A stretch of DNA of 64,000 bases from the NCBI GenBank assembly GCA_038227875.1, contig JBBRPR010000010.1:64001-128000 (forward strand). The letters are read 5' to 3'. Positions within the stretch are counted from its first letter, which is position 1, and the number at the start of each line of letters is the position of its first letter. Positions 11,530 through 62,098 of this stretch are shown here, piece by piece. The translations under genes were made by a program, and so were the position numbers. The notes below the pieces were generated by a model. That model ran no database searches. It was not told where the DNA came from and worked only from the letters and a program-made list of their open reading frames with translations. The DNA is from Planctomycetota bacterium. Its GTDB lineage: Bacteria; Planctomycetota; SZUA-567; H5-PLA8.

Positions 11530-13020
11530 TCAGAACTTGTACAGCCAGCTGACCGAGAACGTGTCCTGGTAGTCCTGGCCCCAAGGATGGGCGCGGACCA
11601 ACGCGTCGACATTGTTGATGTCGTTGTTGCGGGAGCTGAACGCGTTGACGTTCGACTTGTCGTGGCGGTATTCGAAGCGCATGTGGAGCGGGTCAGACAG
11701 GGCGTAGTCCGTGGTGATCGTACCGGACTGGAGGTCCTGGCGGAAGCCCGTGCGCGCACCTTCCGGATCCGAGAAGTATTCGTAGCGACCGGCCACGTAC
11801 CACTTTTCGGTGAACTGATACTTGACGTACGCAGCAGCGCCGTACCAACGGCGGAAGTTGCGGGTCGTCAGGACGCCCGGGATTTCGTCGGGAGCGCCTT
11901 CGGTGCCGTAGTCGGCGTTCAGGACGAACGTGAACTTCTCGAACGGAGTGAACGTCATGACGGTGTCGAGCACAGCGCGCGGGCGGCCGTGCGACGGATC
12001 GAACTTCTTGCCCGTGAGCTGAGACTTCGCACCCGGCGTGGTCGGATCGTCCGGCGCGAGGCCCGGAGCATTCGGGTTGGCGAAGGTCGTGGCGCCGGCG
12101 GTGGCGTCATTGAAGCGCTGGCGTTCGTCGATGTACTGAGATTCACCGACACTTCCCTGTACAGTCCAGTTGAACCACTTCACCGGGGTCCAGTTCGACA
12201 TGAACAGACCGGTCGGGGAGTCCACTGGGTTCTGGATGGTATCGTTCGCGTTGGCAATGCCCAAACCGACAGTCCAGACGTCCTTGAAGGGGCTGTAGGT
12301 CGCGCGGACGCCGGTGTGCGTGAACGGAAAGGCGTCGCCGAAGAGGAAGGAGCGCGATTCGTTCATGTTGTCGGCGGCTTCGATCGTTTCCGCGCCCATC
12401 CATGTGACGAACTTACCGAAGTCGATCGTGATTTCGTTGCCGTGGCAGCCGCAGCCGACGCCCAGCTTGTATTCCAGATACGCCTGCTTCAGGTCAACCA
12501 CTTCGAACTGGTTGTTGCGCGCGCCCGGCGTGCTGATGTTATCCTGCGACGCGAAGATGCGCGGGTCGGTGCCCAACGCCATGTCGATCTTGAAACCGGC
12601 CTGACCAGCTTCGGTCGGGAGGCGGTCGAACGTCAGCTCGGCGAGGTGGACATTGAAGCCGTTGCTGTCGTTATCGAAAATGCGCTGATTGCTGTTGATG
12701 TTGTTCGGCCGGTTGAAATTGTACTGGTAGCTGGTGTCGAGGTAACCACCGATCTTCAACGGGCGGGTATTGCAACCCGGTTCCGGCGCAGTCACCACCA
12801 TACCCATCTTCTGGTTGGCTTCGGAGACCGCGTGGTCTACAGCGGAATGGCCACCCGAAGCAGCCTTCAGCTTGGATTCCAAATCCGCGTTCTTCTCTTC
12901 CAACGCCTTGAGGCGCGCGAGCACTTGCGTCATATCGCCGCCTTCGGCGCCGATTGTTACGCTCCCCATGCTGACGCACACAGCCAAAAGGGCGATCAGC
13001 CACAGCCCACGTCGAATCAT
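11530..13020 (-). CDS. Outer-membrane beta-barrel porin (BBP2/DUF1597-like)
   Basis: Signal peptide, coiled coil, GGYLDTSYQYNFN, QAYLEY, GKFVTWMGAETIEAADNMNESRS, PFTHTGVR, RFEYRHD and C-terminal aromatic YKF; strong RBS. Confidence 0.85.
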   Translation of the reverse strand: MIRRGLWLIALLAVCVSMGSVTIGAEGGDMTQVLARLKALEEKNADLESKLKAASGGHSAVDHAVSEANQKMGMVVTAPEPGCNTRPLKIGGYLDTSYQYNFNRPNNINSNQRIFDNDSNGFNVHLAELTFDRLPTEAGQAGFKIDMALGTDPRIFASQDNISTPGARNNQFEVVDLKQAYLEYKLGVGCGCHGNEITIDFGKFVTWMGAETIEAADNMNESRSFLFGDAFPFTHTGVRATYSPFKDVWTVGLGIANANDTIQNPVDSPTGLFMSNWTPVKWFNWTVQGSVGESQYIDERQRFNDATAGATTFANPNAPGLAPDDPTTPGAKSQLTGKKFDPSHGRPRAVLDTVMTFTPFEKFTFVLNADYGTEGAPDEIPGVLTTRNFRRWYGAAAYVKYQFTEKWYVAGRYEYFSDPEGARTGFRQDLQSGTITTDYALSDPLHMRFEYRHDKSNVNAFSSRNNDINNVDALVRAHPWGQDYQDTFSVSWLYKF

Positions 13021-13105
13021 TCCTATTCCTCCCTGGGTAAAAACCAAGACCGCTTTTCGCAGTCATCCACAATTGGATGCGTGTAAATGAGATTCTATTT
13101 ACACG

Positions 13106-48782: not shown

Positions 48783-49627
48783 ACTGCGATTCAGCGCAAA
48801 TCCTGATTCAAGCGCGGCTCGACCGCGAGCTGGATGTCGAGCGCGCCATCGAGTTGGGGGGGCACCTGGCGCTCTGCCCGGAATGCCGCGACTTGTCTGC
48901 GGATCTAGAACAGTGTTGTGTCTCGGCCGGAGTGCTTCCTGAGTTTCGCACCGGCAGTGTGGTGAGCGCAGCGGCGTTGAATCGGATACGCAATGCAGAC
49001 CAACTGCCGAGGCGGAATTGGAGACCGCAGTGGGCCGCTCTGGCGGCAGGTATCGCGATGATCCTGGGATTCGGCGGCTATTTTCGTCTTCGAAGCCCTT
49101 CTCTAACCGAATATCCGAAAGCCGCCGCGCCCGACCGGGTTGTTGTTCCGAAAATTCCTCCACCACATTCAATTCCAGTCGCGCCTGCACCCGCGCCCGA
49201 GGTGGAAATGAATCAGGATCCGATGCAGGCACTTCTGGTGGAGCACTACTGGAGCGAACACCGCCGCCCGGAAGGCGAACGCGCGCGCGAACGCCGCCGT
49301 GCCGAACTGCTTCGCGACTTGCGCAATCCAGACAAAGCCGGCGACGCTGCAGAGGAATTGCTGGATGACGCCGACAACGCCACAGTCTGGGCCGTGGCCG
49401 CGAGCGTGTCGGACACCTCCAGTGGAGCGGAGGTGTTCGCCGCTGCCGCGAAACTCAAGCCCGACCTGCGGCTGGTGCCGGTCTACATTGCCGCTCTCGA
49501 CGCTTCGAAAACACGCGCGCGCGCCACCGAGCTGCTGTGCAGCGCATCGGGAAAAAAGTTTGGATCTCAAAAGGAAATTTGGCTGACGTGGTGGGCCGGA
49601 GCCCGTTCTCAACTCCGCGATGATTAA
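48779..49627 (+). CDS. Zinc-finger (zf-HC2) anti-sigma factor with TM and HEAT-like periplasmic domain
   Basis: MNC...HLALCPEC, TM, Pro-rich linker, C-terminal LCSASGKKFG...WLTWW; ATGA overlap with the sigma gene. Confidence 0.85.
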   Translation: MNCDSAQILIQARLDRELDVERAIELGGHLALCPECRDLSADLEQCCVSAGVLPEFRTGSVVSAAALNRIRNADQLPRRNWRPQWAALAAGIAMILGFGGYFRLRSPSLTEYPKAAAPDRVVVPKIPPPHSIPVAPAPAPEVEMNQDPMQALLVEHYWSEHRRPEGERARERRRAELLRDLRNPDKAGDAAEELLDDADNATVWAVAASVSDTSSGAEVFAAAAKLKPDLRLVPVYIAALDASKTRARATELLCSASGKKFGSQKEIWLTWWAGARSQLRDD

Positions 49628-49664
49628 ATTTTCATGCTTTCGGATTCTTTCAGGAGCAGGCGAC

Positions 49665-50672
49665 ATGCGAAAACTATGGATGGTGATGCTGCTGTGTGGT
49701 GTGGTCTCTGGCGCGTCGGCCCCAGCGGAGGAGGCCAAGCCCGGACTCGCCGTTGAACTGCAGATTTACGATGTCGCGGACATTATCAAGCAGCCCACGG
49801 ATTTTCCGGCGTCAAGGCTGTATCCCGGCAACTCCGATTCGTCCATTGTGTCGCCTTTTGTTGACATTACGCCCGCGCCGTCGTTTCAGGCCGCGGATAT
49901 TGTTTCATTGCTGCACGACCGCGTATTTGCCGCCGAATTCGCCGATCCAAGGACCAGTATTGCCGAAAGTGGCGGCTGCCTGGTGGTGATGCAGACGCCC
50001 GCGATCCAGAAGAAGGTGACCAGTTACATTTCGAAGCTGCGCGGAATCATGAAACCGCAAGTGATCATCAAGGGAAAGTTGATGAGTGCAGCGGATATTC
50101 CTGCAGGAACGATCTTCGATGCCGCGGCGTTCTCAAAATTGAACGCGACGGTAAAGCCGGAGAGCATTCTCGCGTCAACCCGGCTGTTGAGTTACAACGG
50201 CCAACTGGTCCATACTCAGAGCGGACGGCTGTACAGCTACATCCGTGATTACGATGTCGCCGGAAGCGTCTACGACCCGGTGATTGGCCATGGACTGGAA
50301 GGCTATGTTTTTGAAACCCGCTCGACGCTCAGCAGCGATCGCAACAGTGCCGATGTCAATCTCCGCTTCACCTTCACTGCACCCAGCGGAAAGCCGGAGA
50401 CGCGCAACATCGTGCTGGCACCGCCGGTAACCTCGGTCACGGCCGCGGGAGAGAAAGCGCCGGACGCCGCCGCGGCTGCCCAGACGGTCACGCTCCCGAT
50501 AGACGTACCATCCATCGATGTCCAGGAAATCAGCACCACGCTGCGCGTGCCCCTGGGCAAATGGATGCTGGCTGGCGTGATGAACAACCCCGTCCCCAAT
50601 GCGGCAGAGAAACGCGTGCTGCTGTTTATCAGCATCGAACTGGCCGGAACTAACGCTCCCGCTGCCAAGTAG
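49665..50672 (+). CDS. Mini-secretin-like protein 1
   Basis: Signal peptide; IYDVADI N-domain; TRLLSYNGQ...YDPVI...STLSSDRN...TTLRVPLGKWMLAG...LLFIS resembles the secretin beta-core. Confidence 0.65.
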   Translation: MRKLWMVMLLCGVVSGASAPAEEAKPGLAVELQIYDVADIIKQPTDFPASRLYPGNSDSSIVSPFVDITPAPSFQAADIVSLLHDRVFAAEFADPRTSIAESGGCLVVMQTPAIQKKVTSYISKLRGIMKPQVIIKGKLMSAADIPAGTIFDAAAFSKLNATVKPESILASTRLLSYNGQLVHTQSGRLYSYIRDYDVAGSVYDPVIGHGLEGYVFETRSTLSSDRNSADVNLRFTFTAPSGKPETRNIVLAPPVTSVTAAGEKAPDAAAAAQTVTLPIDVPSIDVQEISTTLRVPLGKWMLAGVMNNPVPNAAEKRVLLFISIELAGTNAPAAK

Positions 50673-50722: not shown

Positions 50723-51805
50723 ATGCGTACACGATGTATGACAGTTCTGATGGTCGTGGGTTGCCTGGCATCCTGTGCCTTTGGCGCCGACGATCCGCCC
50801 AAGATCGACGTCGAAATGAAAATCTACGACGTCCATAGCCTCGTAAACCCGGTTGTGGATTATCCCGGTCCGGATTTGAATTTAGGCGCGTCTCCTGTCT
50901 CTGCCGCCCCCACGGCACCGATGGGCAACGGGGTGAGTCCCAAGGTAACGGTCGTTCCCACGGTCGCGAATATTGTAGACATGCTCAAATCCCGAGTGCG
51001 ACCGGAATCATGGGATCCAGCGCTCGGGACCAGTGTCGAGGAGATGAGCGGCTATCTCGTGATCATGCAGCGGCCCGAAGTTCATGCATTGATTACTCAA
51101 CTGCTCGCCGCGTTTAGCAACACGTCGCAAAGGCAGGTGGTGGTCAAGTCACTGCTCATTCCCGCGGCCACAATTCCCGACGAGACGTTCTTCGACGACG
51201 CTGAACTGAACAAGGCATTCGATGGCAACGCGGCCGCGGCTGCTGTTGCCGCGCCGCGCATATCCTGCTTCAACAAGCAGCGCGTTTACGTGCTGAGCGG
51301 AACTATGGTCTCTGTCGTTCGCGACCTGGACGTCAACGGCGATAGTTACGATCCCGTCGTGACGTCGCAGGTCGATGGCTTTGTTCTCGATGTGCGCCCC
51401 ACGGTTTCCTACGACAGCAGCGTGACGGAACTGGAGCTACGCGCCTCGTTTAACACCAATTTGAAGCGCAATCCCCGGACGCTGGGGACCCCCGCTTCCA
51501 GCGCACTGCGCTCCGTGGCGGCGCTGGCGCAGGAAGAGTCGAGTAGCACCACGACAAAAAAAGAGAACGGCCATGACGAAGTCACTGCCAGCAGCCGCCG
51601 CCCCGCTGGCCAGATCCTGAACGCGCAGTACCTGGTCGGAATCGACATGGATTTTCCCTCCGTCGACAGCGGCAATGTTCGCACGGAACTTTCGATCCCC
51701 ACGGGGAAATGGGTGCTCGCCGCGACGCTGAACAACCCCGACGCAAAATCTCCCAAGAAGAACATGTTGCTCTTCGTGAGTTCCGAAACGATCGACACGA
51801 AGTGA
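50723..51805 (+). CDS. Mini-secretin-like protein 2
   Basis: RBS AAGGAG; signal peptide; IYDVHSL, RVRPESWD, APRISCFNKQR, GFVLDVRPTVSYD, RTELSIPTG, LLFVS. Confidence 0.7.
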   Translation: MRTRCMTVLMVVGCLASCAFGADDPPKIDVEMKIYDVHSLVNPVVDYPGPDLNLGASPVSAAPTAPMGNGVSPKVTVVPTVANIVDMLKSRVRPESWDPALGTSVEEMSGYLVIMQRPEVHALITQLLAAFSNTSQRQVVVKSLLIPAATIPDETFFDDAELNKAFDGNAAAAAVAAPRISCFNKQRVYVLSGTMVSVVRDLDVNGDSYDPVVTSQVDGFVLDVRPTVSYDSSVTELELRASFNTNLKRNPRTLGTPASSALRSVAALAQEESSSTTTKKENGHDEVTASSRRPAGQILNAQYLVGIDMDFPSVDSGNVRTELSIPTGKWVLAATLNNPDAKSPKKNMLLFVSSETIDTK

Positions 51806-52007: not shown

Positions 52008-52034
52008 TGTAACCTCGCCTGTTCCCAAGCGTCT
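52008..52034 (+). promoter_or_regulatory. Putative ECF-type promoter
   Basis: TGTAAC-N16-CGTCT, preceded by an AT-rich tract, about 20 nt upstream of ATG 52054. Confidence 0.5.
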
Positions 52035-52053
52035 CACGTGGGTGCGAACAGGC

Positions 52054-52680
52054 ATGGCTGAAAAAGCGATACCCATCGGCGCCGGAGCTGCAATGAGCTC
52101 CGCTGCCGCGGACGTCTCCGATGCGGAGCTGCTGCGCCGCGTCGCTGCGTCCGATCACCTCCCGGCACGGACCAGGGCGCTGGAACTGCTCTTCGAACGG
52201 CACTCCGAACCGCTGCTCCGCTTTCTCACCCGTACCCTGCGCCACGAACACACCGCCGAAGACATCCTTCACGACGTGTTTGTGCGCGTCGCGGAAGCGG
52301 CGCCGACGTTCCGGGGAGAAAGCACTGTGCGCACGTGGCTCTTCACTCTGGCCTTGAACAAAGTCCGCAGCGGCAAACGCCGCGACGCCGTCGAAAACCG
52401 CGCCACCGAAATGATGGTGGCGTCCCGGCCGGCGCAACACACCGATCACAAGCACGATCCGTTCGAGCAGGCGCAGCAGCGCGAATTGCGCCAGCGCGTC
52501 GACGTGGCCATCGGCGAACTAGGCGCAGACGAACGCGAAACCTTTCTGCTCTACTGGTTCGGCGGCATGAACTACGCCGAAATCAGCGCCGCCAGCAACA
52601 TCACCGTTTCCGCGGCCAAGGTGCGCGTCCATCGCGCGCTGCTGCGTTTGAACAAACTTCTGGGCGAGGCCACGGCGTGA
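52054..52680 (+). CDS. ECF RNA polymerase sigma factor
   Basis: SDAELL, AEDILHDVF, FRGESTVRTWLF, NYAEIS...AAKVRVHRA. Confidence 0.9.
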   Translation: MAEKAIPIGAGAAMSSAAADVSDAELLRRVAASDHLPARTRALELLFERHSEPLLRFLTRTLRHEHTAEDILHDVFVRVAEAAPTFRGESTVRTWLFTLALNKVRSGKRRDAVENRATEMMVASRPAQHTDHKHDPFEQAQQRELRQRVDVAIGELGADERETFLLYWFGGMNYAEISAASNITVSAAKVRVHRALLRLNKLLGEATA

Positions 52681-52729
52681 CGTTTTACTCCGCCTGTTTT
52701 CGCCGACTGCAATTTTGGGAGAGCCGTAC

Positions 52730-55700
52730 ATGAACCAGACCTGCGAACACATTGAAGAGCAAATTCCCGATGCGCTCAGCGGCCGCTTGAATGGCGCCGC
52801 GCTGGCCGAACTGGAAGCGCACTGCGAAATCTGTGCGGATTGCCGGGCACTCTACGGTTCATTCGAACAGACCACGCAACTGTTGGAACGCGCGTTTCCC
52901 GTCTCGGGCGGCCATCGTCCTGAACTGTGGGATCGGATCGAATCCAGCGTGAGCGCCAAGTCGGCGCGCATGGCCGCGCCACGCGTGATTCCGGCGTGGG
53001 GCCCGATCGCTGCCGCCGCCGCGATGGTTGCGCTCGCTGTTCTGCTCTTTGCCGGAAGCCCGGCGCGCCGCACCGAAAACGTTGCGAGCGTGACTGTGCC
53101 ACCCATCACAGAAACTCCACGTGAGAAAACGTCGAAAAGCACGACGCCGACGCCCGTGGCGATCGCGCGCGGTCCTCGTGAGGTCATCGACGACACGCGC
53201 GGCCTGGCGCTCTTGCGGACGACCGGCCCGGTCTTTACGTTCGACGCGGAGCACCAGGCGTGGCGTCAGGTCGTCTCCGGTGAGCGAATCGCTTATGGCG
53301 CCGCGCTCCGCACCGCGCCCGGCGCACTGGCGGAACTGGCCTTCGGCGAAAGCCGGGTGCGCGTCGATGAAAAGTCGGAAGTCACGGTCTCCAACGCGAC
53401 GGTATCCGCCGCGCGGGTGGCTGAATTGACGCACGGCCGTGTGCGCGTCGATCTGCTCCATTCCGAACGCCCCTTTCAGATCCGCTCCGGCGGCGGCATG
53501 GTGGAACTCACCGGTACCGTCGTCGACGTGGACGCGCCGGCCACCGATCTCGCTTTCGTGCAGGTCCTCGAAGGCCACGTCCGCGTCACGCCCGCCGCGA
53601 ACACAGCCGACGTTGCGCCCGTATCCGTCGTAGCTGGGCAGGAAGCGTTGGTCGCGTCGCGCATCAACGCTGCGCTGCTGAAGTCTCTCCCTGCCGACGT
53701 GCAAGCGCGCTTGAGCGCCTTCAAATCGTCGCAGGCCCTCGGCCGCGATGCAGCCGCGAACTGGACGGATTCGCTCGATCATCCGCCGTCGCCGAAAAAT
53801 TCCGCGATCGGACAACTGATCGTCAAAGACGAACACGGCCGCGAAGCCGAACCACTGCGCATCGTCAGCATGGATGTGAAAACGCAGGTTCGCGGTCCAG
53901 AATCGATCACCCGTATCGACCAGAGCTTCTACAACTCCACCAACGGTACGTTGGAAGGCACGTTCTATTTCAACGTGCCGCCCGGAGCCGCGATCTCGCG
54001 CTTTGCGATGTACGTCGACGAAAAAAATCTGATCGAGGGTGAAGTTGTCGAACGTGGCCGGGCCCGCGCCATCTACGAATCGATCCTGCACGCCAAGCGC
54101 GATCCCGCGCTGCTGGAATGGGTCGACGGCAACACCTTCAAAGCGCGCGTCTTCCCGATCCAGGCGCGCAGCAACAAGCGTATCATCATGGAATACACGC
54201 AGGTGCTGCCTGCGTTCTTCGACACGCGACGTTACGTTTTTCCGCTCGTCAGCGATCTGGCGCAGAAAGCCGAAATCGGAAAACTGAGCATCCAGGTTCA
54301 ACTCGCCACCGGCGACAGCTCGAGCTTCAGCGAAATCGCGTCGCCGTCCTACTCAAGCGACCTGCGCATCCAAGGCGATGGTGAAGCCTTCGCCACTGCG
54401 TCGCTCCATCTGGAGCACGCCCGCCCGGCGGCCGACTTTGTCCTCAATTTCTCCGCGCCGCGCGCGTCGGAACTCTACGCGTCGGCATATGCGCAGAACG
54501 GCGAGCAGCCCTACCTTCTATTGGGCTACCAGCCGCGCCTTCCGGCCACCTACAAGCGCGCCGCGAATGCCGCGGGCCGCGACATTCTCTTCGTCGTGGA
54601 AACCTCCGGCGCGCGCACGCCGCAGGACCTGAGCGCCCAGCGCCAGGCGCTCACCGCGATGCTCGCCGCGCTGAACGATAACGATCGCGTCGCATTCGCC
54701 GCCGCCGACATCGGACTCGTGCCGCTCACGACACGTTTTCTCCCCGCGCGCGCCGCGGAAGTCGATGCCGCTCTCGCCGCGCTCAAGCAGCGTGTGGCGA
54801 TGGGCGCGCTCGATCTCTCGGCGAGCATTCGCGCCGCCGCTACCAGCTTCGATACATCAGCCCCAACTCGCGAGCGCCTGATGCTCTTCATCGGCTCCGG
54901 CGTGCCCGCGCTGGGCGAACTCGACAGCGGCAAAATCGCAGCGGAAGGTGCGGAAGCTCTGGCCAAAGCGAAAGCGTCGTTCGTCGCCGTCTCGCTCGGC
55001 CAATCGGTCGATGCGCTGACGCTCTCGGAAGTCGCGCGCCGCAGCAATGGTTTCTATCTGCCGCTGAAAGCCGACGAAGGCCTCGACGCCGCCGCCTTCC
55101 AACTGGCGCTCGGTCTGCAAACGCCGCTGCTCACGTCGCCGGAATTCAAAGCCGACGCCAACTGCACCGCCGAAATCTATCCCGCGAACCTCGGCGCGTT
55201 GCTGCCCGGCCAGGAGATCTTCCTCAACACGCGCGCCGCCAAAACCGGCGCTTCAGTGCTTCGCTTCACGCTGAGCGCCGAACTTCAGAAGCAGCCGTTC
55301 ACGTCCAACTTCGTGGTCGCGCTCCCGTCCGACCTCAGCGCCGACCCCGCCGCCGGCCGTTTCTGGGCGCGCGCGCGTCTGGATCATCTCCTCGCGCAGC
55401 CGCAAAGCGACGAATTGCGCAACGAAGTCATCGAACTGGCCAAAACCTGGACGCTGATGAGCCCGTACACATCATTCCTGGTGCTCGAATCCAACGAGGA
55501 ATACAAACGCTACGACATCGACCGCAGCAAACGCCGCCCGGCCTGGCGGGATCTGGAAGCTCCGACAGTGGCTCAGAATCCGGGCCAGTCGCTCATCGGT
55601 GTGCTCACCCGCGTCAAAGGCAGCAGGAGCGGGGTCGCCTACGAGAAGTCTGCGAATGCCTATGTAATTCGCGATCCTGCTGCGGAATCCACCGGCTTGC

Positions 55701-58700
55701 TGCAAGAAGGATTGAAGTTCTTCAACGAACTCGAATACGAGTCGGCGAAGCCGGCTCTCGAGCGCGCCGTTCTTCTGGATCCGACCAACGAAGTTGCAAA
55801 GCAGAAACTGCAGACTGTGAACTCGTTGCTCGCAATCCATGTAGACAAAATCGGGCGCAAGATTCGCGAATTGGAACAGGGGGAGCGCGTCAGGCAGTCG
55901 GAGTCGCTGGTCCAACTTGCCAACGCGTTTCAAGATGGCCGGAGTCAAGAAGAACTGGGCTCAAAGCCCGCGCAAGAAACGACCGGCGCGAACAAGGAAC
56001 AGATTCTTGCCGACCAGCTCGACCATTTGCGAAAGGCACAGGACAAGTTCCGCCGCGTCACAGAAATCCTGAACTGGTTGCCGCCGTCGTTCGACCTGCC
56101 GTCTGAACGTGCGTCAGTCGAAGATTCCTTGAAGCGCACTAAACAGAAAATCGCTGAGAAGGAAGACGAGATCATTTACCTGCGACGCGTCGCTGCGCAA
56201 AAAGAGGCCGACGAAAACCGCGTGCGGGAGACGGAATTGTTCAAGGCGCGCATTGCCAAACTGACCGAGCAGGTCAAGGATCGCTACTATCGCGGCGACT
56301 ACAAAGCAGCCGAGCGGCTGTCGACGCGGATTCTCCAGATAGATCCGTTCAACACGGACGCTGAAGGCTGGAAGTTGAAAGCGCAGGGAGCGGGGATGTC
56401 GCTCAACGGAAGAAACGCTTCAGAGCATCCTGATGAATACGTGGACGCGGATATCGACAAAGCGACCATTGGGTTTGCGCCAATCATTCTCTACCCATCT
56501 AACTGGGACCAGATTACACGGCGTGTGGACGATTTGACAAAAGTATCGCGCGGCAGCTTGGCTGAGAAAGCAAGTATCGGCAAAGAGTATCAAGGATTGG
56601 ATGCCCGAGTCTTATTCGGCGACTTTGGAGATATTAAGAATTTGCCACGCGTCGATCTGGGAACGACACGCGGCGAAGTCATTGATCCCTTCAAAGCTCC
56701 ACTGAGATGGGACCTTCAATCGCAAGCCGACGCGCACCGCGAAGCCGGGAAGCGCCTGTTCGATTCCTTCAAGCTCGCGGATACCAATCTCGAGAGTTCA
56801 GATTCTCGAAAATCCAAACAAGAGCAGAGTGAATTCGATCAATTGAAGCGCGAAATTGAAGATTTACGAAAGCGGCTAAAGACTGCGGGAACAAACCCGC
56901 GAATCACCTATGTGGATAGCGTGTTGGATAGCAAATATGGTCCCAATACTTCTGTAACCACGAAGAACGGCGATCTGAAAATCGGTGGGCTGACTCAGGC
57001 CTGGCATGGGAAAGAGTCAGATCCAGAGACCGCGGCTCGCATCCATGGTGTGGATTCGGAAACTGGCGAGTCGAATGCCGAGCAACGGGCTCGCATGCGC
57101 GAATACGAGAAGCAGAAATTCAGCACGGTAGAAAAGGCAGCAGAGGACCTAACAAAAGCGCAGCAAGACGATGAGTTGAAGAGCTATAAAGTTCTTAACG
57201 GTCGGCTCGATGTCCACTCGGAAGAGGTCGCTGAAGTCCGGGACAATGACACGGAAACAACCGGCCGCAAAGAGGTCGCCATCGCCGCGAAGGACAATAC
57301 CATCCGCCAGCAGGAATCACTGCTCGCTCAGGAGAAAGCGGAGAAGGAGACACTCGCCGAACAGAACAAGGCGTTGGCTGAACAGAATCTCCAACTCGCT
57401 GAAAAGAACGCCAGGATCGCCCAAGAGCAGGCTGCGGAAACGATGGCGCTGGGTCAGAAAATTGCGGAACAGGACAGTTTACTTCATGACTTGGGAACGC
57501 TGTACTCGCGCGGCGCGATGACGGATACGAAGCACGACGCGTTGGAGAAGATGCCGGAATCGGCAACGAAAACGCCAGCGCTTTCTCCGGAACTTGAGAT
57601 CTACGATGTCCGCGATTTGACAAATACCATTGCCGACTTCCCAGGACCGGAATTGAAGCTGGAGAAGAAAGAGGCCGCTCCGCCGACGCCTCCAACGGAA
57701 ACGGCGACACCGCCAAAGAGAGACATTGCGGATCTGATGGCAAAATTGATCGACAAGGGTGTGCCCAATACGTCGATTGCAGAGAACAACGGGCAACTCG
57801 TGGTCATGGCCGACCCCGTGTCCCAGGCGAAGGTGGCGAAGGCGTTGAAGGAAATGCGCGAGCCCAACAACTCCAATATCTTCGAAACGATAAATGATCA
57901 GTTGAAGACTGCTCGCAATACCGCAAAAAGCGGGGGATTCGGACCCGTGAGTTCGCCGCAGCCGAAAATCTGCGCGATCTGTAATCAGCCTTTGTTCAAG
58001 CACGCCGATCCGAATTTTGTCTGTCAGCCAAACGCGGACCGTAGCGACCAGCGAGCAAACCAGGAGTTGCGTCTCAAGTTCAACGCCGAACGGGATGCTC
58101 ATCAGGAGGCTCTCGCAAAACTCGCGACTGCGGAGCACGAAAATGGCAAGCTGCTGGCTGAAGACCAGGAATACATCAAGAAAAGTACGCAAGAATTGAA
58201 CGACCACACGTCGGTATTGAGTTCGCCGGTGCTCTTCCAGGGATTGACCAAGGAGCTGCTACGTACCACGCCAACCGACCCGCAGGTCCGCGCGCGAAAC
58301 GAGAAGTCGGAACTCGAATATGAATTGGCGATCACCAACCAGACGCTCAGCGCGCTGGAAAAGGATAAGCGCAGCGTTGAAGAAGACCTGGCACTTCAAA
58401 CCAGCCGAATTGAGCGGCTGCTAAAATCAGGTGTTCCAATCGCTCGGCTTCTGGGAGAAGATTCGGCGTCCGATGGGCCAGCCACAGCCTCGGCACCGAA
58501 AACCCCTCCAGCAAGCGCGCCTGGCGATGTTCTTCCAGGCTTCTTTAGCCGCGCGGAGATTCCGTTGGATCTGCCGCAAACCTCCCAGCGAATCGAAGTC
58601 ACGAAAGTGGTCCCGTCGCCGGTGCCGGAACATCCCGCGTCGCATGAACAACCCTACCGGGCAACCTTCGGTCCGATCAGTAACGATTCGGCCGACATCG

Positions 58701-60430
58701 CGAAGCTCAAAGATGAAGTGAACGCCGCCAAGCAGAAGCTCGCGCAGCAGAATCGGGACAAGCATGCCATCGAAGAAGATCTCGCCCTGCAAACCAGCCG
58801 CATTGAAAGGCTGATGAAGAACGGCGTGCCGATCGCGCATCTTGTTGGGGAAGATCCAACCGCGACGCAACCGTTCGTCGCCGATGGCCAAGTGCTGGGC
58901 GTTCGTCCTGAGATTAGACTTGTGATGCTGTCCATAGGTTCGCAACAGGGCGTCAAGCCTGGCTTCCAGTACACCATTAAGCGCGGTGACCAATACGTCA
59001 CACGAGTAATTGTCGAAAAGGTGTATCCAGATATGTCGTCGGCCCGCTATGTCGAAGGTCTTATGAATAAAGAAGGCCGTGAGGTCGAAGTGAACGACGA
59101 AGTCATCACGCGTGGCGGGAGCGCACCCGTCTCCGACGACAAACCCCTCGCGCCGAAAACCGCACCCGTCAATCTCTCCCGCGACCAAATCGCCGCACTG
59201 CTTGCCACCATGCCCAAAAATTCCGATGTCGCCGCCGCGCGTGCGGAACTTTACCGCAAGCTTGCGGCGCTCAGCACTGGGCTTGACGCCTGCCGCGTCC
59301 TCGCGCAAGGCCTCGCGGAATTCCAGGGTGAAGGGACGCAGGCCGAACAGCTCGCGGGCGATGTCGTTGTGCTCGTCGACAGTGAATCCAGCGCGGCGGT
59401 GCTCGACGCGATGCTGCCGCTGCTCAGCGATGAAAATCTGCGAGCGCGGGTGCTCGCTCGGCGCGGCGCGGTGGAACCGGACTTGAACAAGCGCTGTGAA
59501 TTTCTGGCGTCGGCGTTCGAAGCGTCCGGAAAAGAAGTGTCGTACCTTCACCCGCTGGCGGTGGCGCTGAATACCGGAGGGCGTCACGCTCAAGTCATTG
59601 CGCGGCTGGAAGCGAGTCTGCGTTCCGGCGGCGCGCAGAATTGGATGTGGCCGCTGCTCACCGTGTCGTACCGCGCGATCGGCGATGCGGCCGGCGCACT
59701 GCGCGCGGGCTCGCAGCTTGTCGCGCAGCATCCGCGGGAAGCGGCGCCGCGCATGGAATTCGCACGGGCGCTGGATGGCCTGGGCCGGGGTGCCGATGCG
59801 ATCCGCGAAATGCGCGCAGCCTGCACGTTTGCGCCGGAGAACGTCGACGCGGTGCGCGCGCTGCGCGACCTTTCTAAAAAGTACGACGATGCGGAAACGC
59901 GCGCGTGGGCGCTGCTGGCGCTGCTCCGCAACGACTGGGGCAACGACAGCCAGCCGATCTGGGCCGACACGCGCAAGGAACTGGACGCGCTGAAAGCCGA
60001 TTTTCTCAAAGCCGGAATGAAGGACAAGGCCGCGGATCTCGCCAGCCGAGCCCGCGAAGCGGACGTCACCGACATCGTCGCGGTGATGAGCTGGAACACG
60101 GACAAGACCGACATTGATCTGCACGTGGAAGAGCCCGGCCAGCAGCGCGTCAGCTACAATTCACGCTCGACGTTCCGCGGCGGCAACCTCGATCACGACA
60201 ACACCTCCGGCTACGGCCCGGAGACGTACACGCTGCGCCACGCGCCGGCCGGGCGGTACATCATCAAGGTCCACTACTATTCCGGCCAACCACCGACCGA
60301 CGTGACGATCAACGTCACGCGCCGCAAGGGCGGAGCAGAAGAGACGACGCAGACGTTCCACGTTCACCTTGAGAAGGCGCATGACGAGCAGATTGTGGAG
60401 ACGATCGATATTCCGAACGGAACGGAATGA
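52730..60430 (+). CDS. Giant anti-sigma factor: zf-HC2 + TM + FecR + VIT + vWA + mosaic insert + TPR + DUF2135-like
   Basis: HCEICADC; TM; FecR (LTHGRV, GTVVDV, VLEGHV); VIT (LEGTFYF...ARAIYE...RDPALLEW...RVFPI); vWA-like FVVETSG; MSPYTSFLVLE; TPRs; SWNTDKTDIDLHVEEP...DNTSGYGPE. Single uninterrupted frame. Confidence 0.85.
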   Translation: MNQTCEHIEEQIPDALSGRLNGAALAELEAHCEICADCRALYGSFEQTTQLLERAFPVSGGHRPELWDRIESSVSAKSARMAAPRVIPAWGPIAAAAAMVALAVLLFAGSPARRTENVASVTVPPITETPREKTSKSTTPTPVAIARGPREVIDDTRGLALLRTTGPVFTFDAEHQAWRQVVSGERIAYGAALRTAPGALAELAFGESRVRVDEKSEVTVSNATVSAARVAELTHGRVRVDLLHSERPFQIRSGGGMVELTGTVVDVDAPATDLAFVQVLEGHVRVTPAANTADVAPVSVVAGQEALVASRINAALLKSLPADVQARLSAFKSSQALGRDAAANWTDSLDHPPSPKNSAIGQLIVKDEHGREAEPLRIVSMDVKTQVRGPESITRIDQSFYNSTNGTLEGTFYFNVPPGAAISRFAMYVDEKNLIEGEVVERGRARAIYESILHAKRDPALLEWVDGNTFKARVFPIQARSNKRIIMEYTQVLPAFFDTRRYVFPLVSDLAQKAEIGKLSIQVQLATGDSSSFSEIASPSYSSDLRIQGDGEAFATASLHLEHARPAADFVLNFSAPRASELYASAYAQNGEQPYLLLGYQPRLPATYKRAANAAGRDILFVVETSGARTPQDLSAQRQALTAMLAALNDNDRVAFAAADIGLVPLTTRFLPARAAEVDAALAALKQRVAMGALDLSASIRAAATSFDTSAPTRERLMLFIGSGVPALGELDSGKIAAEGAEALAKAKASFVAVSLGQSVDALTLSEVARRSNGFYLPLKADEGLDAAAFQLALGLQTPLLTSPEFKADANCTAEIYPANLGALLPGQEIFLNTRAAKTGASVLRFTLSAELQKQPFTSNFVVALPSDLSADPAAGRFWARARLDHLLAQPQSDELRNEVIELAKTWTLMSPYTSFLVLESNEEYKRYDIDRSKRRPAWRDLEAPTVAQNPGQSLIGVLTRVKGSRSGVAYEKSANAYVIRDPAAESTGLLQEGLKFFNELEYESAKPALERAVLLDPTNEVAKQKLQTVNSLLAIHVDKIGRKIRELEQGERVRQSESLVQLANAFQDGRSQEELGSKPAQETTGANKEQILADQLDHLRKAQDKFRRVTEILNWLPPSFDLPSERASVEDSLKRTKQKIAEKEDEIIYLRRVAAQKEADENRVRETELFKARIAKLTEQVKDRYYRGDYKAAERLSTRILQIDPFNTDAEGWKLKAQGAGMSLNGRNASEHPDEYVDADIDKATIGFAPIILYPSNWDQITRRVDDLTKVSRGSLAEKASIGKEYQGLDARVLFGDFGDIKNLPRVDLGTTRGEVIDPFKAPLRWDLQSQADAHREAGKRLFDSFKLADTNLESSDSRKSKQEQSEFDQLKREIEDLRKRLKTAGTNPRITYVDSVLDSKYGPNTSVTTKNGDLKIGGLTQAWHGKESDPETAARIHGVDSETGESNAEQRARMREYEKQKFSTVEKAAEDLTKAQQDDELKSYKVLNGRLDVHSEEVAEVRDNDTETTGRKEVAIAAKDNTIRQQESLLAQEKAEKETLAEQNKALAEQNLQLAEKNARIAQEQAAETMALGQKIAEQDSLLHDLGTLYSRGAMTDTKHDALEKMPESATKTPALSPELEIYDVRDLTNTIADFPGPELKLEKKEAAPPTPPTETATPPKRDIADLMAKLIDKGVPNTSIAENNGQLVVMADPVSQAKVAKALKEMREPNNSNIFETINDQLKTARNTAKSGGFGPVSSPQPKICAICNQPLFKHADPNFVCQPNADRSDQRANQELRLKFNAERDAHQEALAKLATAEHENGKLLAEDQEYIKKSTQELNDHTSVLSSPVLFQGLTKELLRTTPTDPQVRARNEKSELEYELAITNQTLSALEKDKRSVEEDLALQTSRIERLLKSGVPIARLLGEDSASDGPATASAPKTPPASAPGDVLPGFFSRAEIPLDLPQTSQRIEVTKVVPSPVPEHPASHEQPYRATFGPISNDSADIAKLKDEVNAAKQKLAQQNRDKHAIEEDLALQTSRIERLMKNGVPIAHLVGEDPTATQPFVADGQVLGVRPEIRLVMLSIGSQQGVKPGFQYTIKRGDQYVTRVIVEKVYPDMSSARYVEGLMNKEGREVEVNDEVITRGGSAPVSDDKPLAPKTAPVNLSRDQIAALLATMPKNSDVAAARAELYRKLAALSTGLDACRVLAQGLAEFQGEGTQAEQLAGDVVVLVDSESSAAVLDAMLPLLSDENLRARVLARRGAVEPDLNKRCEFLASAFEASGKEVSYLHPLAVALNTGGRHAQVIARLEASLRSGGAQNWMWPLLTVSYRAIGDAAGALRAGSQLVAQHPREAAPRMEFARALDGLGRGADAIREMRAACTFAPENVDAVRALRDLSKKYDDAETRAWALLALLRNDWGNDSQPIWADTRKELDALKADFLKAGMKDKAADLASRAREADVTDIVAVMSWNTDKTDIDLHVEEPGQQRVSYNSRSTFRGGNLDHDNTSGYGPETYTLRHAPAGRYIIKVHYYSGQPPTDVTINVTRRKGGAEETTQTFHVHLEKAHDEQIVETIDIPNGTE

Positions 60431-60523: not shown

Positions 60524-62098
60524 ATGCGCTGTTCCCTCGTGCGGTTCGGTGTCTATTTGGTTTTTGCGGCAAGCCCTTTCGTGGCCTATGCCAGCTCGAT
60601 TGATGACCTGCGGCAGGAAGTCGAGCGCCTCAAAAAAGAAGTCGCGGTCCACGCCGCTCCCGAAATCCCCATTGAACAAAAATATCCCGGCTCCGTCGAC
60701 GCCTGTTCATCCGCTGTTGCGGTGCGCAGCCGTGCGACATTGACCGTCGGCGGCTTGCTGCAGGTCTGGTATCAATCGGTTCAGAACGATCGGCGCGGCA
60801 TCGTCTTCAATTCGCCGGTCAGCGATCTCAGCGGCGAATCGAACCAGACCAACGACAACGATACCTTCCGTATTCGCCGCGCGGAACTGCGCTTCGTCGC
60901 CGATGTCGACGAGCATTTCAGCGCTCACGTCACGCTGGATCCAGCGCGTGAAAGTTCGGCCTCGTTTTACCCGCTGCCCACGTTCATGAATCACAACCGG
61001 CTGCTGTCGCCGGCGCTTCCCAACACCACGCTTGGCGGTGTACCCGTCGCCGCGGGCACACGCACGACGCTCAGCGCCAACCAGATCACGCCTTTATTAT
61101 TGGAAGACGCGTACATCAGCATTCACGATTGGCTGCCGCACCATGAAGTTCTGCTCGGACAGATGAAGCCGCCGTCGGGCGCGGAAGCGTGGACGGACAA
61201 TGGCGACCTCGATTTTGTCGAACGCTCACTGATCGCGCAGGCGTCGGACATCCGCGACATCGGCGTGATGGTCCACGGCACGTGGTTCTGCGAACGACTG
61301 CAGTACTGGGTCGGGGCGTTCAACGGGCCGGACGGCACGACACTGGCCGATACCGAGAACGTCACCGGTGCCAATCGCGCTGACGACAACAACGACAAGG
61401 ATTTTGCGTGGCGTGTTCTGGCCCGGCCGGTGTGGAATGCCGATGCGTGGTCCGGCCGCCTGGAAGTCGGCTACGCGCGCACCGATGGCTACCGCGGCAG
61501 CAGCGGCCAGGCCTTCGATGCGTCGACGCCGCTCAACGCGTTGAACGAGCAGCGTACCGCCATCAACCGGCAGAACGCCTGGTTGACGTACCGTCCCGGC
61601 GGAGTGCTGCGCGGCGTCTGGGCGCGCGGCGAATGGGAATCGCAGCATGCACGTTTTAGCGCGTTCCGCGGCCGCACGAATCTGCTCGGCACGGGTTCCG
61701 ACGCCGCGAGCATTGATGGGACAACGGTGATCTTCGGGCAGCTGAACCCCGCGCCGGTGACCGCGTCCGGCTGGAGCGCTTCGGCCGGCTACCGCCTCTC
61801 GGAATCCCGCTTCGCCGCTTGTTCGTGCGATTCCTCGGGTCTGCGCCAGGCGCTGAACAATTTGGAGTTCGCCTTCCGCGCCGAACAGTATGAAAACGTC
61901 GCCGCCGAAAGTTTCGTGAATCCCGATCGCGCCACGAATCTCTACCGCACGCGCGTCTACACCGGCGGCGTGAATTACTACATGAGCGCCGCGAGCAAAC
62001 TGCAGTTGAACTACGGTATCGTCAAAGACCCCCGCAGCGGAGCCCTCCGCGACGTCCGCAACAATTTCCTCGCGCTGAATTTCCAGGTGGGGTTTTGA
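60524..62098 (+). CDS. Outer-membrane porin (OprO/OprP-like family)
   Basis: Signal peptide, coiled coil, FRIRRAEL, LEDAY, GQMKPP, LDFVERS, RDIG, GAFNG, GVNYY and terminal FQVGF. Confidence 0.8.
   Translation: MRCSLVRFGVYLVFAASPFVAYASSIDDLRQEVERLKKEVAVHAAPEIPIEQKYPGSVDACSSAVAVRSRATLTVGGLLQVWYQSVQNDRRGIVFNSPVSDLSGESNQTNDNDTFRIRRAELRFVADVDEHFSAHVTLDPARESSASFYPLPTFMNHNRLLSPALPNTTLGGVPVAAGTRTTLSANQITPLLLEDAYISIHDWLPHHEVLLGQMKPPSGAEAWTDNGDLDFVERSLIAQASDIRDIGVMVHGTWFCERLQYWVGAFNGPDGTTLADTENVTGANRADDNNDKDFAWRVLARPVWNADAWSGRLEVGYARTDGYRGSSGQAFDASTPLNALNEQRTAINRQNAWLTYRPGGVLRGVWARGEWESQHARFSAFRGRTNLLGTGSDAASIDGTTVIFGQLNPAPVTASGWSASAGYRLSESRFAACSCDSSGLRQALNNLEFAFRAEQYENVAAESFVNPDRATNLYRTRVYTGGVNYYMSAASKLQLNYGIVKDPRSGALRDVRNNFLALNFQVGF

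Follow-up and report, generated by a model that had tools for sequence, protein, structure and literature searches.

The 64,000-nucleotide window analysed here (C10:64001-128000 of the 9.3-Mb draft genome of a Planctomycetota bacterium, G000) encodes a giant anti-sigma factor whose sensory region is an assembly of pieces of the cell's own envelope proteins, most of them apparently kept by selection, a theme that recurs in a second anti-sigma architecture. One of these pieces, encoded at 56822-57004, is a true homolog of the mature N-terminus of the genome's own OprP/OprO-like porins; it is a fragment, not a porin. The string of pieces to which it belongs suggests a mode of envelope self-monitoring not described before. 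The features concerned are:

56822..57004, plus strand: copied porin N-terminal stalk (helix, helix, YGPN loop) with most of strand 1, residues 1370-1430 of the giant.
56972..57004, plus strand: DLKIGGLTQAW, corresponding to porin strand 1 residues 74-84 by alignment and AlphaFold porin model.
52042..52680, plus strand: extracytoplasmic function (ECF) sigma factor gene (Pfam Sigma70_r2, E 2.1e-12; Sigma70_r4_2, E 3.9e-11).
52715..60430, plus strand: giant anti-sigma factor, 2571 residues from TTG 52715 in a single open frame.

The translation of the piece reads EQSEFDQLKREIEDLRKRLKTAGTNPRITYVDSVLDSKYGPNTSVTTKNGDLKIGGLTQAW. A BLASTP search of all 53,153 stop-to-stop frames of at least 80 residues in the genome returned ten matches to these 61 residues other than the giant itself (E 7e-13 to 5e-4), every one of them N-terminal; eight of the matched frames are porin-sized (476-580 residues), two are cut by contig ends, and the best match reaches 50% identity over 56 residues. 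A hidden Markov model (HMM) of nine of the genome's own porin N-termini scored the piece at 58.7 bits over model positions 1-60 of 60, while a second HMM, built on 65 porins from the public collection (three of them from G000 itself), gave 71.1 bits. The origin from a porin N-terminus, which the first-pass annotation of the window had proposed, is thus borne out by the genome-wide search and by both models. The porin alignment consists of a signal peptide, a helix with heptad-like hydrophobic spacing, a linker and the motif LDSKYGPNxxVTTKxGKLxIGGLxQxW. Nine columns of the module are conserved in at least 85% of the 65 porins, and the piece retains every one of them (residues compared by eye); at the DNA level its likeness to the porins is modest, 76-82% over 50-78 bases.

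That such a match should be due to chance, to compositional similarity or to an assembly chimera is scarcely credible, even though the piece opens with a charged, heptad-like helix of a kind prone to spurious matches and the genome is a draft of 176 contigs, 88% complete. When the coiled coil was removed, the 34 remaining residues still matched five of the genome's porins (E 2e-13 to 1e-7) with 47-64 bits; since the best of 100 shuffled versions of this part scored 30.3 bits, the non-helical part is highly significant alone and the similarity outlasts the masking of coiled-coil composition. The frame stays open for 2571 codons, and in a separate assembly of a sequencing run, possibly from the source sample, a single contig of 12.5 kb covers 56300-57500 with zero differences. 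Other runs contained short flanking parts only, none of them covering the porin piece, and no RNA run was among those listed. Independent support for the architecture comes from orthologues in separately assembled genomes of other samples: in three further genera the piece occupies the corresponding position.

The same annotation had the similarity end exactly where the barrel would begin, and this did not hold. In the AlphaFold model of the porin paralog P0005 (65 sequences; mean predicted local distance difference test, pLDDT, 85.5; predicted TM-score, pTM, 0.80), helices at 25-45 and 50-59 are followed by the YGPN loop and by a first strand at 74-88; hence the similarity runs past the barrel start, the piece covering the periplasmic extension in full as well as 11 of the 15 strand-1 residues and stopping inside the strand. 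The strand is modelled with block pLDDT values of 87-95 and the N-terminal extension with moderate ones of 55-77. Giant and porins diverge after W1430, beyond which strand 2 was not detectable in the giant by alignment, by the N-terminal HMM or by a full-length porin model. The last of these, built from nine own porins (512 positions), aligned to the giant only at 20-110, with confident similarity stopping near position 62-70, and a Pfam scan of the giant gave no Porin_O_P (PF07396). The donor paralogs do match that family (P0003, E 4.8e-16; C67 paralog, E 6.3e-11). The nearest solved folds to the P0005 model are the trimeric porins OprP (2o4v, E 1e-14) and OprO (4rjw); when solved structures were searched by sequence, the porin alignment found no match.

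The annotation had also likened the piece to two barrels of the window:

60524-62098, plus strand: Porin_O_P-family porin directly downstream of the giant (PF07396, E 4.8e-16).
11530-13047, minus strand: BBP2-family barrel (Pfam), taken there as the other porin.

The first likeness is real but the weakest available, since the adjacent porin ranks as the least similar own paralog of the piece (E 1.3 genome-wide, 7e-5 pairwise) and is not supported as the model for it; the second was rejected at E 0.097 in a single comparison. The BBP2 (OmpL-like) barrel opens with a short charged helix that precedes the first strand, an N-terminal layout that resembles the Porin_O_P paralogs, and homology of the N-termini was not detectable. 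The expectation of a closer donor elsewhere in the genome was correct. When 35 modules of four genomes were compared with the piece over the 37 residues available, the N-terminus of a porin at the end of contig C43 scored best, with 22 of 37 residues identical and a score of 111 against 85 for the next. This gene (C43:75488-75874, plus strand) and that at C67:3-257 (minus strand) are different genes with an identical mature N-terminal sequence; both contigs break at the same residue (..LDSKY), the remainder of both genes being unassembled, apparently because a repeated porin sequence interrupted the assembly. Another paralog, C15:81435-83301 (plus strand), spans two overlapping frames (model positions 8-344 and 304-512), probably because of a frameshift or sequencing error.

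The protein that carries the piece has the layout of a single-pass anti-sigma factor, with these further features:

Residues 10-44: zf-HC2 (Pfam, 17.9 bits, under the cut-off of 22.2).
53000..53056, plus strand: sole transmembrane helix, residues 96-114 (Kyte-Doolittle, 19-residue window).
Residues 198-290: FecR (PF04773), after the membrane helix (E 1.7e-9; 38.4 bits against a cut-off of 24).
Residues 384-494: VIT domain (Pfam).
Residues 623-781: VWA_3 domain (Pfam).
59126..60415, plus strand: C-terminal module, a TPR-like region with a DUF2135-like end, common to orthologous giants.

The sigma gene lies upstream, 34 bases separating its end from the start of the giant, and the same arrangement was found in all five orthologous genomes examined (G012, G006, G014, G010 and G008). 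The entry for the giant in the public protein collection (P0004) has 2566 residues and starts five codons later, at ATG 52730. The H-x3-C-x2-C (HxxxCxxC) motif of class I zinc-binding anti-sigmas is visible in the sequence, and the zf-HC2 domains of orthologous giants score 30.6 bits (G008) and 21.1 bits (G010). Hydropathy reaches 2.16 at residues 96-114, the second-best window of the giant being 1.33. Because this one transmembrane helix follows the cytoplasmic zinc-finger domain, residues 115-2571, the porin piece included, would be periplasmic. The C-terminal module is 43-45% identical to the ends of the giants in G010, G008, G012, G006 and G014, and the DUF2135 match at its end is weak.

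What had been overlooked in the first reading is that the giant contains about ten pieces copied from envelope proteins, of which the porin piece is one, and that its residues ~957-2133 are almost fully covered by pieces that have paralogs at other places in the genome:

Residues 957-995: secretin C19 residues 291-326, 56-59% identity.
55703..56551, plus strand, residues 997-1279: secretin N-terminal TPR/coiled-coil copy, 71% identical to residues 201-482 of secretin C18a (C18_108329_105273); tiles reach residue 488 at 70-89% each.
Residues 1288-1310: secretin C18a residues 713-735, 83% identity.
Residues ~1306-1334, 1626-1649, 1684-1698 and 1831-1850: several short bits of secretins C50/C18b, 38-93% identity.
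Residues 1371-1430: porins, mature N-terminus, up to 83% identity in a tile.
57251..57523, plus strand, residues 1513-1603: OmpA-family lipoprotein coiled-coil copy, 77% identical to C63_17828_16821 residues 91-181 from right after its lipobox, the first 25 of 25 residues being identical.
Residues 1587-1614: C48 (1687 residues, no Pfam family) residues 311-336, 68% identity.
57575..57862, plus strand, residues 1621-1716: secretin N-domain copy, 42% identical to secretins C50/C18b residues 461-557, with short stretches at 85-93%.
57860..58054, plus strand, residues 1716-1780: DUF2225/TPR protein N-terminal copy, C21_129201_131354 residues 47-111, 62-75% identity per tile.
58031..59113, plus strand: two partial copies of the 298-residue membrane protein C88 (C88_1978_1085), residues 1773-1928 being 51% identical to its residues 72-249 and residues 2000-2133 being 83-86% identical to its residues 165-298.
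Residues 1942-1964: secretin C19 residues 556-580, inside the secretin barrel domain, 68-78% identity.

Pfam recognises Secretin and TPR in the donor C18a and OmpA in the donor C63, and several copies start with, or close to, the residues that are the first structured ones of the mature donor. The C88 gene (G000 C88:1085-1978, minus strand; locus L016) belongs to no Pfam family, and frames of ~300 residues matching the C88-type part of the giant are present in many of the related genomes searched. C88-type coiled coil is also repeated within the giant, residues 1870-1927 (58322-58498) and 2001-2058 (58715-58888) being 53% identical. A second anti-sigma factor of G000 (zf-HC2 with DUF4349, an 864-residue frame at C36:11731-14322, minus strand; L014) has an OmpA-lipoprotein coiled-coil piece as well, with ~37% identity over 182 aligned positions to residues 1514-1682 of the giant.

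The porin piece is not confined to one genome. The porin-module model, run on 17 genomes of the family, gave 139 matches distributed over all 17, of which 134 lie in frames of 68-858 residues, mostly of porin size and a few short or contig-cut. The other five lie in frames of 1284-3317 residues, namely the giants of G000, G010, G008 and G003 and a G004 protein. The giants of G010 and G008 retain helix, linker and KYGPNA motif only, the strand being absent; the G003 giant fragment has the helix, ~55 residues including a GYKLS strand motif, and then GRYGPNAAVTTRNGKLTVGGLMQAW. In G004 the host is a protein of 1453 residues with vWF_A, VWA and YfbK_C, encoded directly downstream of an ECF sigma gene, and the fusion carries ~190 porin model positions. 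A strand motif of the form GY(K/R)L was seen by eye in G003, G010 and G004. In the G010 giant (L024, G010:C41), ~20 residues past the stalk piece, residues 2263-2294 resemble a porin C-terminal hairpin (GFNYYLRGNDAKIWFNL against the porin consensus GVNYYIKGHNAKIQLNY; model positions 463-494), a weak match with an independent E-value of 0.036 to 0.56.

The module model did not find the porin module in the giants of G012, G006, G014, G021 and G015. The unpublished genome G017 figures in a single tally and supports none of the claims made here. A scan of public contigs for related loci returned no relative with a single-protein query and 80 loci with an alignment query; among these 80 the porin module occurs only in the G010 and G008 giants, and more distant copies could have been missed because the model was built from porins of this family. 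A word-indexed search for other proteins of 1414-4500 residues with the porin piece yielded only the giant itself among 34 candidates. Exhaustive phmmer comparison of residues 1330-1480 with 1.84 billion representatives gave 52 non-self matches, all confined to the module, which starts within the first 79 residues in 48 of them and is internal (beyond residue 100) in four. P0152 (1646 residues) combines zf-HC2, DUF2950, vWF_A, VWA and YfbK_C with a porin piece at 597-662, followed by an OmpA coiled-coil piece; the same pair is found in P0155, from a cluster with a 1533-residue member and Planctomycetota-named members, whereas P0124 and P0130 are short gene calls with porin and secretin pieces. 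Nine internal copies are therefore known, with helix and YGP motif kept in all nine and strand 1 in seven.

The age of the copies was assessed by pairwise Nei-Gojobori estimates between pieces of the giant and their own-genome donors, nine comparisons of short pieces with codon bias unmodelled. In seven of them synonymous divergence (dS) is 1.6-3.0, that is, saturated, nonsynonymous divergence (dN) is 0.10-0.31 and dN/dS is 0.06-0.12. For the porin piece dN/dS is 0.12 in the helix part (38 codons) and 0.10 in the strand part against C10a (30 codons). Where residues are identical, only about half of the codons agree, and recent gene conversion was rejected as the source of the high identities on this ground and because dS is saturated in seven of the nine comparisons. 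Since synonymous sites are saturated, an unconstrained copy would by now have lost its likeness to the donor. Within the limits of these estimates, such saturation together with dN/dS of 0.06-0.12 indicates that most copies are old and under purifying selection.

These values make it improbable that the piece is the decaying remnant of a porin gene copy without signal peptide, inserted in an ancestral giant and eroding without function in each lineage. Such decay would agree with the variable extent of the barrel part (none in G010 and G008, strand 1 in G000, more in G003 and P0124, ~190 positions in G004) and with the scrambled order of the fragments in G003 and G010. However, dS is saturated (2.3-3.0) in two of the four porin comparisons, yet 60-70% of residues and all nine conserved columns are kept, and an unconstrained stretch of 60 residues would no longer reach 58-71 bits. 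Some function is favoured by the presence of copies in the giants of four genera and in another anti-sigma architecture, as well as by dN/dS, which is low in three of the four porin comparisons.

The relation of the copies to their own genomes was examined in trees of the C88 module (~130 residues) and of the secretin TPR module (~280 residues). In both, the copy in the giant pairs with the gene of its own genome, in six of six cases (G000, G010 and G008; support 0.98-0.998), and the module order (TPR, porin, C88, C-terminus) is identical in the three giants. The six pairings and the constant order point to an inherited architecture whose units were repeatedly realigned with their donors, or selected to stay in line with them. 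By local alignment score the porin piece of each of the four giants likewise matches a porin of its own genome best.

Conserved folds alone would also be expected if the giant were a long periplasmic spacer or scaffold made of duplicated segments, functionally unlinked to the donors, with the folds kept by selection and the donor likeness by occasional gene conversion. This reading, which is considered unlikely, fits the observations that most copies are helical or coiled-coil, that orthologues, 2080 to 3317 residues long, differ in the length and content of their central region, that the copies in the giants evolve 3-10 times faster than the donors, as seen from branches longer by this factor in the C88 and secretin TPR trees, and that VIT-vWA giants are widespread in Planctomycetota while the porin piece occurs in two of 80 related loci. 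It does not account for the choice of donors, since of those identified only the DUF2225 and C48 proteins are not recognisable as envelope proteins; it leaves unexplained why a solitary barrel strand is kept complete with its invariant residues, and it gives no reason for the recurrence of the same pair of porin and OmpA coiled-coil pieces in an unrelated anti-sigma architecture.

One further feature lies upstream of the sigma gene and the giant:

52009..52035, plus strand: ECF-type promoter upstream of the sigma gene, GTAACCT, 13 bases, GCGTC.

The motif GTAACYT-N13-KCRTC is present with the same spacing upstream of the sigma gene in six of six orthologous loci (by eye), and the strict pattern GTAACCT-N13-GCGTC has a single genomic occurrence, at the sigma gene. 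The 94 bases that separate the giant from the downstream porin showed neither a terminator-like nor a sigma-70-like site on the plus strand, so that co-transcription of the two genes is possible; none of the 80 related loci has a giant with a porin beside it. Just upstream of the sigma gene are two plus-strand genes of ~360 codons (49620-50672 and 50723-51805) without a Pfam family, both of which resemble the secretin N-domain and residues 1621-1715 of the giant (31-35% identity) and have ends that look like a shortened secretin C-terminal part.

A selected copy of a periplasmic porin stalk, flanked by selected secretin and OmpA-type neighbours and found in two anti-sigma architectures, leads us to propose, tentatively and with something short of even confidence, that the porin piece is an old stalk copy acting as a self-mimic module for docking or sensing. 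Each copy would present the same surface as the periplasmic N-terminal segment of the native protein and could bind the partner of that segment, which may be its own oligomerisation interface or a shared periplasmic partner; the porin trimer stalk, the OmpA-type coiled coil and the secretin ring are candidate interfaces. The anti-sigma factor would thereby be docked to, or titrated by, envelope assemblies, and release of the sigma factor would be coupled to their state. A more elaborate version, possible but on the doubtful side, is a "self-portrait" sensor, in which a chain of co-evolving copies of periplasmic N-terminal segments, taken from the porins, several secretins and an OmpA-type peptidoglycan binder, would read by homotypic binding whether each of these outer-membrane machines is assembled, the pair of porin stalk and OmpA coiled coil mimicking a two-protein tether from porin to peptidoglycan in Planctomycetota. 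In diderm Firmicutes that job is done by a single protein, OmpM, whereas the proposed planctomycete tether consists of two.

Several observations weigh against self-mimicry. A barrel strand is no oligomerisation element, and mimicry of the stalk fails to explain the strand found in seven copies, while the same strand is absent from the other two of the nine (G010 and G008). In the strand-1 part of the G000 piece dN/dS is 0.59 against C67 and 0.29 against C15 (25-27 codons). The porin piece is short, the margins by which it matches own-genome porins best are small, and in the porin-module tree only one giant of four (G008) pairs with its own porin, those of G000 and G010 being sisters; own-genome grouping could stem from gene conversion alone. 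The AlphaFold model of residues 1355-1620 (5 sequences) is poor (mean pLDDT 64, pTM 0.27) and uninformative on packing: it has helices at 1363-1393, 1395-1408 and 1515-1611, and the strand part lies below a pLDDT of 50. Finally, the sigma promoter was found upstream of no donor gene (none of 20 medium-pattern matches lies near a donor), so that no feedback loop on the donors is visible.

The strand is better accommodated if the copies act as pseudo-substrates that resemble unfolded or unassembled envelope proteins and serve as bait for a periplasmic chaperone, the barrel-assembly machine or a quality-control protease. Unassembled porins or secretins that pile up would then compete this factor away or recruit a protease, the anti-sigma factor would be degraded and the sigma factor freed, which would amount to a built-in version of outer-membrane-protein stress sensing. 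Bare barrel strands, which lie in the membrane and become exposed only when a protein is unfolded, fit this variant better than stalk mimicry: strand 1 is copied in G000, in G003, in the G004 fusion and in four metagenome proteins, the weak C-terminal hairpin of the G010 giant and the GY(K/R)L motifs of G003, G010 and G004 point the same way, and so do the pieces taken from within the secretin barrel domain and the copies that start close to the first structured residues of the mature donor. Even so, a pseudo-substrate role seems somewhat unlikely, since the constant core of all nine internal copies is the helical stalk with the YGPN loop and not the strand, and the long conserved TPR, coiled-coil and C88 modules look folded and not like unfolded bait; a gene for a protease or chaperone was not noticed among the frames annotated in and around the operon.

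If the pieces do act as mimics, whether of stalks or otherwise, they would represent a new input principle for envelope surveillance, and the porin stalk, the OmpA-type coiled coil and the secretin N-terminal regions would become candidates for interaction surfaces in the outer membrane of planctomycetes, which has hardly been studied. The copied pieces, 20 to 90 residues long, are directly testable as peptides. ECF sigma/anti-sigma pairs are among the main signalling systems of bacteria, and to our knowledge the input signal is unknown for most ECF groups. The listings and abstracts returned by a literature search hold no description of porin or secretin fragments inside an anti-sigma factor, and there is a real chance that the sensing principle is new.

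Among the known systems, the RseA/DegS/sigma-E pathway of E. coli is activated when free C-terminal peptides of unassembled porins switch on a separate protease. The giant, like RseA, is a single-pass ECF anti-sigma factor, and the periplasmic side of RseA responds to outer-membrane-protein sequences, as that of the giant may do; unlike in that pathway, the porin N-terminal stalk with strand 1, the secretin pieces and the OmpA-type pieces are built into the giant, which is not known to be linked to a protease. In the FecA-FecR-FecI system an anti-sigma factor contacts the periplasmic N-terminal domain of an outer-membrane protein. The giant shares the FecR domain with such factors. However, no TonB-dependent transducer was noticed in the operon, beside which two short secretin-like genes and the porin are annotated, and no search for such receptors was made; moreover, the giant carries copies of the N-terminal parts of outer-membrane proteins, which in its orthologues include STN domains of the secretin/TonB type, and not only a receptor for them. 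Plant NLR (nucleotide-binding leucine-rich repeat) proteins with integrated decoys are sensors that hold a copy of part of the proteins they are thought to watch. The analogy is one of design only, for kingdom, fold and signalling differ, and nothing shows that the copies of the giant are targets of an attacker.

DcaP of Acinetobacter has a periplasmic N-terminal coiled coil, and this porin (PDB 6eus) is among the fold matches of the porin model, as is OmpM (PDB 8bym). FecR-like anti-sigma groups are mentioned in PMC7826278, which also describes ECF289 anti-sigmas with a von Willebrand A domain and DUF3520/YfbK_C. The G004 fusion and P0152 resemble the ECF289 type in having vWF_A, VWA and YfbK_C, and an ECF sigma gene adjoins; in the G000 giant, VIT and VWA_3 stand in place of YfbK_C, and the passages of PMC7826278 on ECF289 do not mention embedded porin, OmpA or secretin segments. 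OmpM of diderm Firmicutes is described in bioRxiv 10.1101/2023.08.14.552755 as a porin with a periplasmic N-terminal coiled coil. Like OmpM and DcaP, the donor porins are trimer-type barrels with a periplasmic N-terminal helical extension, which in their case is short (~50 residues) and has no SLH domain. What sets the present system apart from both is the copy of such an extension inside a regulator, and not the porin itself.

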